Source: Vicugna vicugna (Eukaryota). From it: a DNA stretch of 64,000 nt. Position numbers and translations under genes: made by a program. The notes under the pieces were generated by a model. It did no database searches, had not been told where the DNA came from, and saw nothing but the letters and a program-made list of their open reading frames with translations. The stretch lies in assembly GCA_013265495.1 (NCBI GenBank), contig MU058153.1, forward strand, positions 870,001-934,000. The letters are read 5' to 3'. Shown here piece after piece: positions 1 to 58,088 of this stretch. Positions within the stretch are counted from its first letter, which is position 1. Each line of letters opens with the position of its first letter.

Positions 1-501
1 GTTTGGGAAGTTTTCAGTCATGATTTCTTCAAATACCTTTTCAATCCCCTTTGTTCTTTCTTCCCCTTCTGGAACCCCTATTATGCATAGATTGGCATGC
101 TTTATGTCATCCCATAGGTCCCTTATATTGTTTTCATTGTATTTTATTTGTTTTTCTCTCAGCTGTTCTGATTGGGTGCTTTCTATTGTCCTGTCTTCTA
201 GGTCACTTATTCATTCCTCTGCATTATCTAGCCTGCTTTGTACAGCCTTTAGGTCAGCTCTCATCTCAGCCAATGAGTTTACTAATTCTACTTGGTTCTT
301 CTTTATAGCTTCTATTTCATTTTTGACATATTTTATATCTTTAAACACTATTTCTTTTAGTTCCTTCAGTACTTTGGTCAGTCCTTTTTTGAAATCTTGA
401 TCTAGTAGGCCATCAATGTCTATTTCCTTGATCGTGCTTTCAGGGGATTTCTCTTGATCTTTTAATTGGGAGAGGTTCCTCTGCTTCTTCATATTGCTCA
501 T
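1..501 (-). pseudogene. ORF1: L1 ORF1p N-terminal part with an in-frame nonsense codon at 213-211
   Basis: Track ORF 211..501 (MSNMKKQRNLSQLKDQEKSPE...RLDNAEE*) continues in the same frame as ISDLEDRTIESTQSEQLREKQIKYNENNIRDLWDDIKHANLCIIGVPEGEERTKGIEKVFEEIMTENFPN, a typical ORF1p coiled-coil to RRM transition. Confidence 0.93.
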
Positions 502-1780
502 ATCTCTCTGACACTGTGGCTTAAGGAGTATCAGCTATCTAGTTCTCCTGGAGATGGTGTGCTCTTAATGATTTTATTGAGGTCTTTGTGTCTTCACCCT
601 GTTTCGTGAACTCAGCTTGCTGTTTCTAGAGGCCCTCTGTTGGCACCCTCATCTGTGCTGCTCCCAGTGGCTGTCGGCTGGCAGATCATGCCCCCTCCTA
701 ACACTGGGTCAGGTGCTGAGCTCTTACCCTGTGGGCAGGTGGGTCATGACCCCCCCCCCAGCACCATGGTCCGGTGCTGCATTCCTGCCAAGAAGGTGGG
801 TGGCCGCCCTCCCTTTCCCAGCACAGATCGCTCCACTGCTCTGTGCAGCTGCCTGCTCTGCCTCTGGTCAGCACTCCGGAGGCGGGCTCTGGAAAGACCA
901 CAGAACGGCCCCATCCCTGCTCTGTGCCAAATCTCAGCTCCTTGTTTGTCTTGGTGGCACAAGTTCTCTGAGGTGCCAGGGCAGAAAGATCCTAATGTCT
1001 TGGGCTGTAAACAAGTCTCAGTCCTGCCTAGGAGGTTGCGGAGCCCCCAGGTGCAGATTCAGGTCTCAGCCCCTCCCGGACCCGGGCACTGCGCACTGGA
1101 GAAGATGGCGGCTGTGGCTGCACCCTGCCTCTCTTCTCGCGAGAAGCACCAGTAATGGCGGTGCAGGTCTGAGGAGACAAAGGCTATGGCGCCCTTCCCC
1201 GCAGGGCACACCAGCCGTGTTGCTTCGCTTTTATCACAATTTATGGAGGACTGAGGTTGTTCTGCTCCATATCCCCTCCCAGCCACGGCGTACAGCACCC
1301 TGCAGTCCTCCAGGGCTGCCTCAGTGCAGCCGCCTCATTGCTCTGCCTAGCTCGGGCAGCCCGTCCTGGCCCCAGCTGCCAGCTCCCATCTCGGGCTGGG
1401 TGTCGTGGGGACCCTCCATGCCCGTTTAACTCAGTTCTGTCAGTCAAGGGATGCTCGGGGCAGATCTGAGCCTCGGAGGCTCCCCCTCCATCCCGCTGGC
1501 CTCTACATTGGATGGGGGGAGACCCAGAGAATGAGCACCAGTCCTCATTTGTTGCTCCCTCCCTGGGGGATTGGTCCTGCACTGTTTTGGTTTTTCTTCT
1601 TTCTTTTTTCCTTTTCTCCTACAAGATTTTTGGTGTCTTTGTCTTTCGAAGAGTGACATTCTGTCGGAGTTCAGCAGGTGCTCTGGTTGGCTGAGTAGGT
1701 CCGTAGATGTGAGTTTTGGTGTATTTGTGGGAGAGGGTGAGCTACGAGCATCCTTTACTCCATCATCTTGCTTCATGTCC
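502..1780 (-). promoter_or_regulatory. L1 5'UTR internal Pol II promoter region, GC-rich with partial CpG decay
   Basis: Lies upstream of ORF1 and is much more GC/CpG-rich than the flanks. Promoter role is inferred from L1 biology. Confidence 0.7.
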
Positions 1781-17785: not shown

Positions 17786-19726
17786 GTCTAGACACATAGC
17801 ATCTTACATGGATGTTCCTAAAAAATATTTCTTGATTATGTTTAAATAAGTAAGTAAATAAGTCAGTAAATACATAATAAGCAGATCGGTCAACCAGTCA
17901 ATCAGGGATTGGGCAGACGTCCTTACGGATTTGGGGGCTTGGTGTTCTAAGGAAAAACTCCTACTGAATAGAAAACTTTTCCCACACATTTTTTTCATAG
18001 CTCCTAGATCCTGACCTCAATACGAGATTAACTCTCACTCTGTAAATCCGTCCCCTTGCCATAGACACTGTACAGATGCATTGATGCAAATGGAATCCAG
18101 AGGATCACGATTGACTTCCTTTTTACTCTCTATGTAACGTGGAGCTGTTTTGAAAATATAAATGCCTATTAACGAAAGACCAGTTGTGCATTTTTTAAAA
18201 GTCATGAAAGATACACAGAAGAAGAAATTATGAATCTGATAGTAACAAGTTTGCTATGATTTTTATCTCCAAAACCTTGAAACCTTAAAGAGTTTGGAAC
18301 ACAGATCATAGACACCATGGGAGAAATGTTTGCAGCCCATCTTCTTGCCTCCTAGTAACCAAATGAAGCCTCGATGTTGCAAGTGAAGTGGAACAACTCT
18401 GTTACCTGTGCTAATCATCTTTTGATCCTTGCCATGTGAATAGATTCATGATCTGACATTTGCTATTCTAGTCACAATAGCTCTTGTCTCAGCAATTCAA
18501 TTTTCAGTGTCTCACGAATTTAATACCTGCTCTATTATCAGAGGACTTGTGATAACTTATACAGCTGAACCTTTTCCAAATTTCCTGTTCATCTTAACCT
18601 TTCCACCTTTCCATCTGGGTGTAGAGGATGGCCTTGTGAAAAGGCAGATTTTTTCAACATACTTTCATCACGCATGGCTATGTGCTAGAGTTTCAGTGTG
18701 ACCAGGACACAAGATCTCAAATGCGTCAGAGAATGGACAGCTTCGGTTGGATTTAGACAGAAAAAGAAAAAGCGAAAGCACTAAAGATGCATATAATTTG
18801 AGCCTTTTGAAGGACTGCTTTTCCCTTGAATCTCCAAAGTTGTTTTCAGTCATGGCAGTAGCCTCTAACACCCAGAAGGAAACTCCCCATCTCTGACTCT
18901 TTCCAAACCTGTGCATCTTTGGGTAAATGGCCAGGTTTCAGAATCTAACTCGGGAGACATTCCACCTCTCAGCAATTTTCAGGTAACTGAGATCTACCTT
19001 GAGCCCAGGGACTAAGTATCAATTCTCTGACTTGGGTGAGCAGCACCTTTAGCTTTCACCAGTGCCAGAACATGCCCCGTCAGGCAGATATTGCAAAGAG
19101 AACTGTGGAACTTAATTTCCATGAAGAGATGGAGGAGGACCAGTTATCTCTAGTATATAGAAGCTGAATTATGTTATCAATCCATAGAATAATCCCTTTG
19201 TCTCCCCACAGACTTGATCCAGAAAGATTAGTCACTGAAACTTACTTTTATTGTATACGCACATACATACTGCAAATAAAACAACAAAGTAAAAATAAAC
19301 AATTATGTATTTATTGAGTTCAAATTTATAAATTTTCAATTAGAGAACAAAATTTGAAATCACTGTTGACATCTAATTATTATTCTTTTATTTGGCTAGA
19401 TATCAAAAAGGAAGTACAAATTCACATGCATTAGAAGTTTGGTAATGAAACTTTTTAAATGCAATTTTAAAATTTTTTTCATAAATACTTTTGTCATAAA
19501 TTTTTGTGGGTTTTTTGAAATTTTATGAATTTTTTTCATAAATAGTACAAAAGAGCTTTCAATAAGAATAGTAGAAAAGCCTTCCTTCCTTTCTCCTTTT
19601 CTTCTTTCATGTAACATATTCTTATTGATTGCATATATGCACCAGCCCTTACTTATAATCCAAATAAAATTAACATCATCAAACATTTTATAATTGCTTA
19701 TGTTTCTTATTAAAAAGTGAAAGTCA

Positions 19727-20490
19727 CATACGAGTGATCTCATATGGTATTTTTCTTTCTCTTTCTGGCTTACTTCACTTAGAATGACATTCTCCAGGGA
19801 CATCCATGTTGCTACAAATGGCATTATGTTGTCGGTTTTTATGGCTGAATAGTATTCTGTTGTATAAATATACCGCCTCTTCTTTATGCAGTCATCTGTT
19901 AATGCACATTTAGGCTGTTTCCATGTCTTGGCTATTGTAAACAGTGCTGCTATGAACATTGGGGTGCAGGTGTCTTTTTGAAGTAGGGTTCCTTCTGGAT
20001 ATATGCCCAGGAGCGGGATTCCTGGGTCATATGATAAGTATATTCCTAGTCTTTTGAGGAATCTCCATACTGTTTTCCACAGTGGCTGCACCAAACTGCA
20101 TCCCACCAGCAGTGTAGGAGAGTTCCCTTTTCTCCACAACCTCTCCAGCATTTGTCGTTTGTGGACTTTTGAATGATGGCCATTCTGACCAAAAAAAAGA
20201 ACATAAATACAAAACAGAAACAGACTCATAGACATAGAATACAAACTTGTGGTTGCCAAGGGGGCAGGAGACTGGGATTCAAAATTTGTAGATACTGACA
20301 GGCATATGCAGAATAGATAAACAAGATTACTATATAGCACAGGGAAATATATACAAGATCTTGTGGTAGCTCACAGCAAAAAAAAAGTGTGGCAATGAAT
20401 ATATGTATGTTCATGTACAACTAAAAAATTGAGCTCTACACTGGAATTTGATACAACATTGTAAAAGGACTATAACTCAATAAAAAAAAG
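19727..20490 (+). mobile_element. Young L1 insertion with 5' inversion: inverted ORF2 C-terminus 19727-20190, sense 3'UTR and poly(A) 20191-20489
   Basis: Minus strand of the left part encodes LVQPLWKTVWRFL...YSAIK...ILSEVSQKEKEKYHM; the right part is a plus-strand L1 tail. AAAGTCA is repeated at 19720-19726 and 20487-20493. Confidence 0.92.
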
Positions 20491-21001
20491 TCAGGAAAAA
20501 GCACTTAACGTAAAAGAAAGCCAAAAATGTCTATTAATATGATGCTGCTAGGGACTGTTGTGTTTACTTATTTGTGCATAACATGATGCTAATGCCATTA
20601 AAGGAGCAATCACGGAGCAGATGTGCTTAAACCTCAGCGTTTGATTGAACATGACACACTTTCGCTAGAATACTATGCTCACTCGTAATTTTACGTGAAC
20701 AGACTTGCTCGGGGATAAATTTTAAAATAAAGAAAAGTGCAGGGTAACAATCTTGCAAATTGGAAACAGCTTTAAAAATGCTTAAATATAGGTGCAGAAA
20801 TGACAGGGGTCATTTTATTACAAAGTCTGATGTGCGCTCAAATACAACTAAACTGAACACAAAATTTACACATCAGTGGTTTCCACTGGGTTAAAAATTT
20901 GTCATTAAATGTGATTGGTTATGTCCATAGTTTTGCAGTACATTTTCATACTGAATATTATAAACAAAATAGTTTTGTGGTCATTTGTTTGTTTGTTATA
21001 C

Positions 21002-21118
21002 TAAGGTGACCAACTGTCTTGGTTTGCCTGGGACTGTAGGGCAGTGTTTCAGAAACTTGGAAGTTTTAGTGATAAACTTAGGAAGTTCTGGGCAAAATGG
21101 GACAAGTCGTTCATTCTA
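21002..21118 (+). mobile_element. MER94 (hAT-Blackjack MITE)
   Basis: TAAGGTGACCAACTGTCTTGGTTTGCCTGGGAC...TTCTGGGCAAAATGGGACAAGTCGTTCATTCTA, with GTTATAC on both flanks. Confidence 0.8.
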
Positions 21119-21228
21119 GTTATACCCCTTGAACCCTATAGTTACGTGAGAAAGTGTTTTAGAAATCACTGTGCTAAGTTCTGTGTCCTTAATAAGGCTG
21201 TAATTAATTGCAAGAAGTTCACCTAGTC

Positions 21229-21385
21229 CACTGGGTTTCAATTCTGGCTCTGCATTATAATTATCTCCGGAGGGTTTTAAAAGTATTGATGCCCAGGCTT
21301 ACCGAAGACCAATTACATTAGAGTCAATCCATTTTAAAGGCTCCCAGGTGATTCTAATGTGTAACAGAGGTGACAGCCGTTGCTC
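21229..21385 (-). mobile_element. MER5-family MITE
   Basis: TTTTAAAAGTATTGATGCCCAGG...CTCCCAGGTGATTCTAATGTG. Confidence 0.7.
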
Positions 21386-21533
21386 CTGGGTTCTCTGAAT
21401 AGCAGTCCACACAGTCAGGCAGAGCAATGGCAGAATGAAGAAATAACCCCTGCCCAAGGATAACTAGACCAACCCTATACTGCCCTTGACATGAACTTGC
21501 CCAGTAGTGGGGGAGGCTGCCCGAGTTTTCTTT

Positions 21534-21911
21534 TTCTTTTATTTATTTTATATATATCTTTATATATTTTGTATACATATATAATTGAAGTATAGTCAGT
21601 TTACAATGTGTCAGTTTCTGGCGTGCAGCACAATGCTTCAGCCATATAGGAACATACGTATATTAATTTTCATACTCTCTTTCACCATAAGTTACTGCAA
21701 GATATTGAATATAGTTCCCCGTGCTATACAGTATGAACTTGTTGTTTATCAGGTTTTGTGAAAATTCTCCTTTATTTTGAAACGAGAAAGATTCTGCCAG
21801 AGTTCAGTAGGTGTTCAGTGCAATTCAGGGGGTTTGTAGATGTCATTCTTGGTGGATTTGTGGGAGAAGGGAGCTGTGAGTCTCTTTGCTCCACCGTCTT
21901 GGCTCCTCCCG
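21534..21911 (-). mobile_element. Bipartite mini-L1: L1 5' end (21911-21750) fused to L1 3'UTR/poly(A) (21749-21534), no ORFs
   Basis: Head GGGAGGAGCCAAGACGGTGGAG...CTCCCACAAAT aligns to the L1 start at 1780-1623; the tail matches other L1 tails in the window; perfect 11-bp TSD GAGTTTTCTTT (21523-21533, 21912-21922). Confidence 0.9.
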
Positions 21912-22449
21912 GAGTTTTCTTTATAAAGCTTGCTACTCTCCATCTCTCTGACTCCTCCCCATGTAGCAGTCTTGTACATCAATATCAGGTCTGAATTCTG
22001 TAAACTGTTCTAGAAACTGAGAATTCAAAATTTGAGATTTTAAGGGTTAGAGTAAATAGACTAGACATTTTTAGAGAACAAAGATTGTGACTTGTTTAAT
22101 TCTAACTCATAGGGCTAGGCACACAGTTTTCAATTTATTTGACAAATCATAGAGTTTTCCCTTTTCTAATTTCCCTTAACCTAAGAAATGAAGAGCTTCA
22201 TCCAAATAGTCCATTTATGTAACTAAGTCATCAAGTATTAACTGTCATGTGCCACTTGGTCCAGCCTTCATGGGATGCACAGACTTACAGGGAATATTGA
22301 AATTCTAATCAGACAATGATTTTAATGAATGCTCTAATTTGTCAGAGTAGCTCTTTCTTGATTTTTATTAAATGTTATATAAATTATGTACAAGACATTC
22401 TTCTAAACATTTATATATATAAATTTATCTACTCCTTGTTATAAACTCA

Positions 22450-22615
22450 TGACCTAGGTAATGTTGTAGTCATCCTCATTTTACAGTTGAGGAAAGCGGG
22501 AGCATCAGTTAGTTAATTAAACTGCCAAAGCCACAAGGCTGGCAAGTAAGAGGACTAGACTTCAAACAGAAGCAGTTTTGCTCTGGGGTCCATGCCCTTA
22601 ATACTTCCTTTATAC
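22450..22615 (-). mobile_element. MIR SINE
   Basis: CATCCTCATTTTACAGTTGAGGAAAGC...CCAAAGCCACAAGGCTGGCAAGT. Confidence 0.72.
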
Positions 22616-23859
22616 CAACTCCTGTCAGAATGGAAATTGGTTTAAAAAACAAAAATAAAAACAAACAACAAAACAAAACAAAACCAAAAAACCCTGCATT
22701 GGAACCCACTCGATGACATTACATAAAGAAAGGGAATGTTAAGATTCTAGTTTTCATATACTCTCCCTTACCAAGTTCAAAGACTCTCCCTGGTGAGTCA
22801 GAGCAAGGAAGATAAGCCCCAGCTTGGGCACCCAGGCAATACACTTATTAGTACCATCTTCTCTGTCATTATATTCAGAAAATCATGGTTGGGTGATTGG
22901 GACAGGACTCTTGAACATTTTATAGTCCCAATCCCACATTTAGATGAGAAAACAATTTTAAGTGAATCTGGAAATAACTCAGAAAATGCAACTAAATATT
23001 ATGAACCCTGAAAAAGAGAATTAAAAAGTGGGAGAGCATAGGAGAGGGAAAGAGAGAGGCAGAGGGATACCTGTGAAAGAAATAGTCAAATGTGTCTCGA
23101 ATGGATAAACTCACAACAGAGTTGCATCTCATCCCCTCCTGCCGAGTGCTTCTGGAAAACTAAGAGCACCCACAGGAATGCTTAGTGTGGGTTCTAGCCT
23201 ACCTGTTACCTATAATTGCCAGAAACTTGCACCCCGCTTTTCCTGTCTTTTTTACAGCTTCTACTTCCTTTTTTTGCAAATTCTTTTAGAAAAAAATTTA
23301 CTGCCACTATATGCCTTTAAAAAAGTCAGTGAGCATGCCCCAGTTTCTGTCTTTAGATTGGGCAGAAATGTCAAGTGTCAGCACAGTGTTGACTTCCATT
23401 CAGATGTAGGGAGAAGGGTCTCCTTCCTGATTCTATGACAAACATTGTCTTGGGACAGAGTCAGCTCTGCATGTGCCCAGAATTTTCATATCTTCACTAA
23501 AAATTACTTCCATTAGATTTTGCTCTGAATTCTCTCTCCCCATGGGGAACCAAAATCAGTCCAAGGTACCTGGCAGGTATCCAACTTTTTCTTCCAATTA
23601 AACTTCTCTTTTATTCCTCCAGTCATAGAAAAAAATACTTTATGCATATGAAGAGATTTATAAAACTGCCTTTGGGGTCTGGATGGGAATGGGGTCGGAG
23701 TAAAGAGACTTTATTCTAATGGGAGAGAGAAAGGGGATGCCAGTCCAGAATCCGTTGTTATAAAAGTACAGACGTAGAGAAGAGCGGAATCAGGAATTTT
23801 GCTGATTTTCAGGTAGACACATAAGGACCTTTATGAAAGTTAACATGACATAGTACTAC

Positions 23860-46785: not shown

Positions 46786-47140
46786 TTTTGTTTTCATTGA
46801 AGTATTGTTGATTTATAATGTTGTGTTAGTTTCTGGAGTACAGCATAGTGATTAAATTATGCATATATATATATATACACACACACACACACTTTTTCAA
46901 TATAGGTTATTACAAGATGTTGAATATAATTCCCTGTGCTATACAGTAGGGCCTTGTTGTTTATCTATTTTATATACAGTAGTTAGCATCTGCAAATCCT
47001 GAACTTTAAATGTATCCCTGTCCTCTTTCCCCCAGTAATCGTAAGTTTGTTTTCTATATTGTGAGTGTGTTTATATTTTGTAAACAATTTCACTTGTGTT
47101 ATTCTTTTTAGATTTCACAGGTAAATGATACCATATAATG
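46786..47140 (-). mobile_element. L1 3'UTR fragment with internal (TA)n(CA)n
   Basis: ATTGAAGTATTGTTGATTTATAATGTTGTGTTAGTTTCTGG...TTTTTAGATTTCACAGGTAAATGATACCATA. Confidence 0.88.
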
Positions 47141-57910: not shown

Positions 57911-58088
57911 GGGGGAGGGTGTAGCTCAGTGACAGAGTGTGTGCTTAGCATGCATGAGGTCCTGGGTTCAATCCCCAGCACCTCCATCAAAAATAAATAA
58001 ATAAACCTAATTACCTCTCTTCCTCCAAAAAACCTCAGACAGCAACAAAAAGTAATAAAATTGAAAAAAGCAAAAAAAAAAAAAGAAC
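57911..58088 (+). mobile_element. tRNA-Ala(AGC)-derived SINE (camelid Vic-1 type)
   Basis: Head GGGGGAGGGTGTAGCTCAGTGACAGAGTGTGTGCTTAGCATGCATGAGGTCCTGGGTTCAATCCCCAGCACCTCCA (decayed A box, B box GGTTCAATCC), then AAATAAATAAACCTAATTACCTC and an A-tail; degenerate TSD AGAAGTCATTTAAA / AGAAAGCAGTTTAAA. Confidence 0.88.

Follow-up and report, generated by a model that had tools for sequence, protein, structure and literature searches.

The minus strand at 21523..21922 of the window, the 64,000-nucleotide stretch of Vicugna vicugna contig MU058153.1 that we analyzed (assembly GCA_013265495.1, positions 870,001 to 934,000), carries an insert of 390 bases that consists of two L1 ends only, fused at 21750/21749. 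Read along the minus strand, the element opens with an 11-bp TSD copy (AAAGAAAACTC, 21912..21922), continues with 161–162 nt of an L1 5′ end (21750..21911; the first base, 21911, may be untemplated) and passes through the join (21749..21750) into the final 166 nt of an L1 3′ UTR (21584..21749). A decayed poly(A)/AT-rich tail follows (21534..21583), with an AATAAA at 21547-21542, and the 3′ TSD copy lies at 21523..21533. Together, the L1 sequence 3′ of the join and the tail make up 216 nt. The initial annotation had described an L1 5′ end of about 160 nt and a tail of about 215 nt within one 11-bp TSD, and this description was borne out.

Both parts of the insert have relatives in the window. 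The 5′ part (21911-21750) aligns with the 5′ end of a related, unspliced L1 at 1770-1658 on the minus strand, with 73% identity over 113 nt (E 4e-12), and the tail (21750-21583) aligns with five L1 tails at 71–76% (E 8e-40 to 8e-15). Within 21750..21911 lies a decayed motif that we take to be a YY1-like start motif. Six-frame translation of the insert yielded no L1 ORF, in keeping with the earlier description of an element devoid of both ORFs, and the absence of ORFs means that the insert would have had to be mobilized in trans. An open antisense frame runs across the join; no relative of it was found, and its two matches were unrelated large repeat proteins.

The two TSD copies are identical at 11 of 11 bp, or at 12 of 13 when extended, and the same 11-mer is also present at two other places in the window, on the opposite strand. 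Because one TSD encloses both L1 ends, the insert is a single insertion, and an origin by two separate insertions was rejected. On the plus strand the insertion site reads 5′-...CTTT/A, a variant form of TTTT/A, the L1 endonuclease consensus quoted in the accessible text of PMC5860796. The TSD, the A-rich tail and the L1-type cut site identify the insert as the product of one TPRT event. A tRNA-type SINE with a tRNA, 7SL or 5S head was rejected as well: the insert had no Rfam match at E up to 1, ARAGORN found no tRNA in it, and its best A box and B box matches each carried two mismatches to the box consensus.

Several other features of the window were recorded. A purine-rich stretch at 21961-21935 (minus strand), 25 nt upstream of the insert, loosely resembles an L1 start by eye and is probably there by chance. 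The related L1 mentioned above is a diverged copy at 1-1780 (minus strand) that comprises a 5′ UTR and the first part of a broken ORF1 and runs off the window. At 19724-20488, the end of a minus-strand L1 ORF2 adjoins a plus-strand L1 tail, an arrangement like that of an ordinary 5′-inverted (twin-primed) L1 insertion; no TSD was located there. On the plus strand at 57915-57986, a tRNA-Ala-like head is followed by an A-rich tail; this feature is single in the window and probably represents the camelid tRNA-Ala SINE vic-1 or a tRNA retrocopy.

Recurrence of the join

Sixteen DNA-type runs from three organisms contained 0.88–0.94 of the words of 20520-23500. Four runs (X2, X17, X19 and X20) were aligned to 21730-22029, a segment that includes only 20 letters of the tail, which excludes plain L1 tails; 20 aligned tail letters lie below the 31-letter bridging threshold. 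In X2, a single record (record 17) spans the whole segment with 0 differences at a depth of 36.3. Overall, 29 of the 409 aligned X2 contigs overrun an end of the segment, and since the unique flank is covered by record 17 only, the 28 others pass all 20 tail letters and hence show the same join in other insertions. Contigs overrunning an end numbered 11 of 120 in X17, 4 of 79 in X19 and 9 of 135 in X20, three runs that contain small shares of the stretch and none of which covers the unique flank. Contigs of the RNA runs leave that flank uncovered and hence carry no information about whether this copy is expressed. The idea put forward in the initial annotation that the element could be part of a family is thus not refuted by a single-copy state, as many other copies cross the same join, and contigs of such copies do so without a gap.

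These contigs bear directly on the reading that the join is a one-off, produced when a full-length L1 at this locus lost its middle or when the assembly went wrong. Record 17 repeats the join exactly in an independent-looking run, albeit one whose record may be the window's own source. Beyond the further X2 contigs at the join, two records that cross it, X19 9 and X20 25, have about 530 letters of different sequence upstream, although the two may be one other locus seen twice. We largely rejected a one-off event or assembly artefact, for which nothing but the age of the copy speaks and which in the face of these records is very improbable.

Depth gave a similar picture of recurrence, falling across the join only to 0.69–0.90 of its prior value. 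The X2 depth in two tail bins, after subtraction of this locus and one gapped contig, corresponded to 67–79 and 106–125 single-copy loci, on the understanding that summed depth is no formal copy number and that contigs may be alleles of one locus. Our lower estimate is about a hundred copies. If an unspliced copy resembling the window's L1 were forced across the join, it would add 12 mismatches in 20 letters. By this sum, three of the six gap-free crossing records listed (X19 9, X19 10 and X20 25) differ too little to be forced unspliced parents; the same sum does not separate the other three. Four of the records listed end at 21754, three of them with 16–301 unaligned letters, and these may be unspliced parents. 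A 3-nt gap at 21744 in X20 26, a further record across the join, agrees with the shorter form of the tail found in three tails of the window and hints weakly that there was more than one parent. In X2, loose ends at 21905 (7 contigs) and 21910 (15 contigs), with an agreement of about 0.5, lead into unrelated T-rich flanks and show many distinct insertion sites for the 5′ end, spliced or not.

The window copy itself differs from the run majority at 11–13 of 106 places in 21762-21867, mostly by private letters. A rate of 5e-9 per site per year, calculated from values for rate and generation time in the accessible text of PMC8605555, would place its age at 20–25 million years, or more at slower rates. 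The window copy is dead and decayed.

Breakpoints and candidate splice sites

The initial annotation proposed that the missing segment begins with GT and ends with AG. In the related L1 of the window (minus strand, 1617..1770), the place that matches the join is followed, as it had noted, by GTAGGA at 1622-1617, one of only two GTRRG motifs in 1281 nt of this 5′ UTR. The register is ambiguous by 1 nt: G21750 was set on G1622 in five of six scoring schemes, with a tie in the sixth. As G21750 doubles as the last letter of the acceptor AG, a putative exon-exon junction at 21749..21750 would contain a 1-nt (G) microhomology. With T at 21753, as in one X19 loose-end consensus, the splice register reaches 8/11 against 7/11 with no indel, as judged by eye.

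Other artiodactyl L1s provide evidence on the putative donor. In the pig L1 consensus 5′ ends given in the supplement of PMC6501411, the homologous place lies about 167 nt from the start and has GT in 22 of the 28 shown (L1B and L1C) and GC in 6 shown of L1D, the youngest family, with a register that is uncertain by 1 nt against pig L1 and with 29 of 61 pig matches listed, 28 of them 5′ ends. The pig donor, GT in the older L1B and L1C and GC in L1D, looks as if the active lineage had weakened it. A working donor about 160–165 nt into artiodactyl L1s has been published, in agreement with the donor at about 160 nt suggested by the initial annotation: in buffalo and cattle, according to the accessible passages of PMC7947781, an ASIP exon is joined by splicing to the first 160–165 nt of L1, and we likened the end of this 165-nt exon to the join by length alone. 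One X19 contig, with a loose end at 21768, departs from the family 5′ end at the donor place and continues into sequence unlike both the tail and the A-rich UTR, which is, in this single contig, as expected of a used donor. The 15 letters that follow the join in this loose end are absent from the window, and no loose end at 21750 was present among the 24 listed. As a separate observation, the loose end at 21768 could represent a host exon fusion driven by an L1 promoter, or a retrocopy of one.

On the acceptor side, AG precedes ATAAAC in three of the five window tails, and AATAG stands directly before ATAAAC in the three tails for which the initial annotation had reported it. The two tails most like the insert (4185 and 54408, both 76%) have no AG before ATAAAC. 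The motif yTRAC occurs exactly 17 nt before the join in three of the four tails that reach that far. In the tail at 46965..46987 (minus strand), CTAAC is followed after 17 nt by the first AG and then by ATAAAC, an arrangement of a putative branch point and acceptor in which the AG is the first one behind the branch-point-like motif. No polypyrimidine tract precedes the putative acceptor, as the initial annotation had cautioned; a good branch point can offset a poor polypyrimidine tract. The six pig tails shown read GG at the acceptor place, which suggests that the acceptor may be lineage-limited. Elsewhere in the window, the homology of an L1 tail at 12900-12739 (minus strand) begins about 6 nt before the putative acceptor AG, and the sequence upstream of it is not an L1 5′ end. 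What stands of the proposed GT...AG segment is thus a GT within 1 nt of the join, in the window L1 as in most pig 5′ ends shown, and an AG in the majority of window tails; its register stays ambiguous by 1 nt, and the AG is missing from the two tails most alike.

The same breakpoints could have arisen by an internal deletion, or by a jump of the reverse transcriptase at the 1-nt microhomology, with later amplification from a master copy. The ambiguous register is compatible with such an event, the letters of the window favor the non-splice register, and the acceptor is weak. R2 SIDEs, RIME and Bov-A reportedly arose likewise. Internal deletion is also the accepted origin of other bipartite LINEs in the accessible text of Kojima 2018 (PMC5786205). 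However, the breakpoints coincide with a conserved donor and with an AG that follows a branch-like motif. Given the local frequencies of GT (3.2%) and AG (6.0%), a deletion with random ends would hit both in 0.4% of cases, or in 1.2% with 1 nt of play. Neither pairing nor a longer homology was found that would guide a jump: the donor and acceptor regions paired no better than shuffles in a comparison of diverged copies only, and the idea that RNA pairing had guided a template jump was rejected at this level. On balance we regard a deletion or jump as an unlikely origin of the join.

Discussion

With moderate confidence, we favor the reading that an L1 RNA was spliced from its 5′ UTR to its 3′ UTR and was then repeatedly mobilized in trans by intact L1s, giving copies that were mostly dead ends. 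Splicing as such, whatever the later fate of the copies, is likely. Under the favored reading, the 5′ UTR of an extinct camelid L1 subfamily would have contained a splice donor at about nt 160, with a branch point and an AG lying about 170 nt ahead of the poly(A) tail. Splicing in the germ line would have removed both ORFs as one multi-kb intron, leaving a polyadenylated, non-coding RNA with about 330 nt ahead of its tail. The ORF2p of intact L1s, probably together with ORF1p, would have copied this RNA into the genome in trans by TPRT about a hundred times or more, and the outcome would be abundant, processed-pseudogene-like copies of L1 itself, one of which, old and decayed, lies in the window. 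Most copies probably derive afresh from full-length L1s. The exact GT and AG ends of the true parent L1 are putative; contigs cannot show a spliced RNA. For the spliced, retroposed L1 of the initial annotation, one TPRT insertion and many copies with the same join are supported, with the splicing itself likely and its register ambiguous by 1 nt.

The closest relatives of the insert are the SpIREs of human L1 (Larson et al. 2018, PMC5860796), which, in the accessible text of that paper, share the deletion from a 5′ UTR donor, the TPRT hallmarks and the presence of many independent copies (116 SpIRE97/622). The insert shows the SpIRE hallmarks of a TSD (11 bp, against a range of 6–25 bp), an A-rich tail and a cut site (CTTT/A). 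In contrast, SpIREs use an acceptor in the 5′ UTR or ORF1, keep ORF2 and are near full length, as described in those passages, whereas the insert has its putative acceptor in the 3′ UTR, lacks both ORFs, measures 0.39 kb and is wholly trans-dependent. The insert lacks the SpIRE feature of a retained ORF2 with an acceptor in the 5′ UTR or ORF1. In the way it works it resembles a human SpIRE, except that neither ORF survives.

ORF-absent bipartite LINEs (RIME, the Vingi-1_EE derivatives, Bov-A, RTESINE and WALLSI3) resemble the insert in consisting only of 5′ and 3′ LINE ends, in having no ORF and in being multi-copy. In the accessible text of Kojima 2018 (PMC5786205) they are reported from RTE, Ingi, Vingi and R2 only and are ascribed to internal deletion, and the word 'splic' has 0 occurrences there. 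They thus belong to non-L1 clades, whereas the insert is L1 and probably spliced, and its self-amplification is putative. The chimeric ASIP transcripts have the same artiodactyl L1 first exon of 160–165 nt, but in the passages available from PMC7947781 this exon is spliced to a host exon rather than to L1's own tail, and the product is not retroposed. HAL1 (half-L1) is likewise a non-autonomous, internally shortened L1, but keeps ORF1, whereas the insert has no ORF. No description of such an ORF-less L1 family was found in the openly accessible literature, including camelid TE papers and passages of PMC13174262, a search to which Repbase and Dfam were external. Short motifs of the 5′ part had 0 matches in metagenome contigs, viral contigs and prokaryote genomes, and 0 in the supplement of the giraffe paper; the text of the 248-genome TE paper contains 0 mentions of camel, alpaca or Vicugna.

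An alternative to repeated trans-mobilization from full-length parents is that mini-copies of the same splice birth kept the promoter in their first 160 nt, or used a host promoter, and served as masters of a self-propagating, Pol II-transcribed, SINE-like parasite of L1. The L1 start region is retained, and bipartite LINEs of other clades do propagate themselves, according to the accessible text of PMC5786205. The peak X2 depth over the best-conserved 5′ part corresponds to about 1200 loci, and in all four runs join-crossing copies amount to at least 5–11% of the peak 5′-end depth, against about 2% for human SpIREs among full-length L1s (PMC5860796), though SpIREs can move in cis; the ratio is, however, biased upward, since parents are clipped at the mismatch cluster 21762-21792. 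Against self-propagation, the tables of letters did not separate crossing copies from parents, so that no diagnostic letters were tied to the former, and the tail variant differs in one record that crosses the join. Furthermore, the accessible passages of PMC5860796 describe human SpIREs as dead ends with reduced promoter strength, and pig L1 5′ UTRs are weak promoters. We hold self-propagation to be doubtful, and our preference stays with trans-mobilization of RNAs from full-length L1s. Equally tentative is the broader conjecture that one 5′ UTR-to-3′ UTR splice could have founded an ORF-less, Pol II, SINE-like family from L1 alone, in a clade not known to give rise to bipartite ORF-less derivatives. 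The burden of such a family may have driven the loss of the donor from L1 lineages.

The insert extends the fossils of L1 splicing beyond primates, to the extreme in which both ORFs would be spliced out. It also fills a stated gap, as ORF-less bipartite derivatives have been reported for four LINE clades but not for L1. Repeat annotation would probably split such copies into two unrelated L1 fragments. If the copies copied themselves, they would reveal how a SINE-like element can arise with no Pol III head; otherwise, they are a variant of SpIREs. Because the RNA would be mobile only in trans, a hundred or more copies would constitute a natural measure of how leaky the cis-preference of L1 is, and the copies would document, with dates, germ-line splicing of L1.
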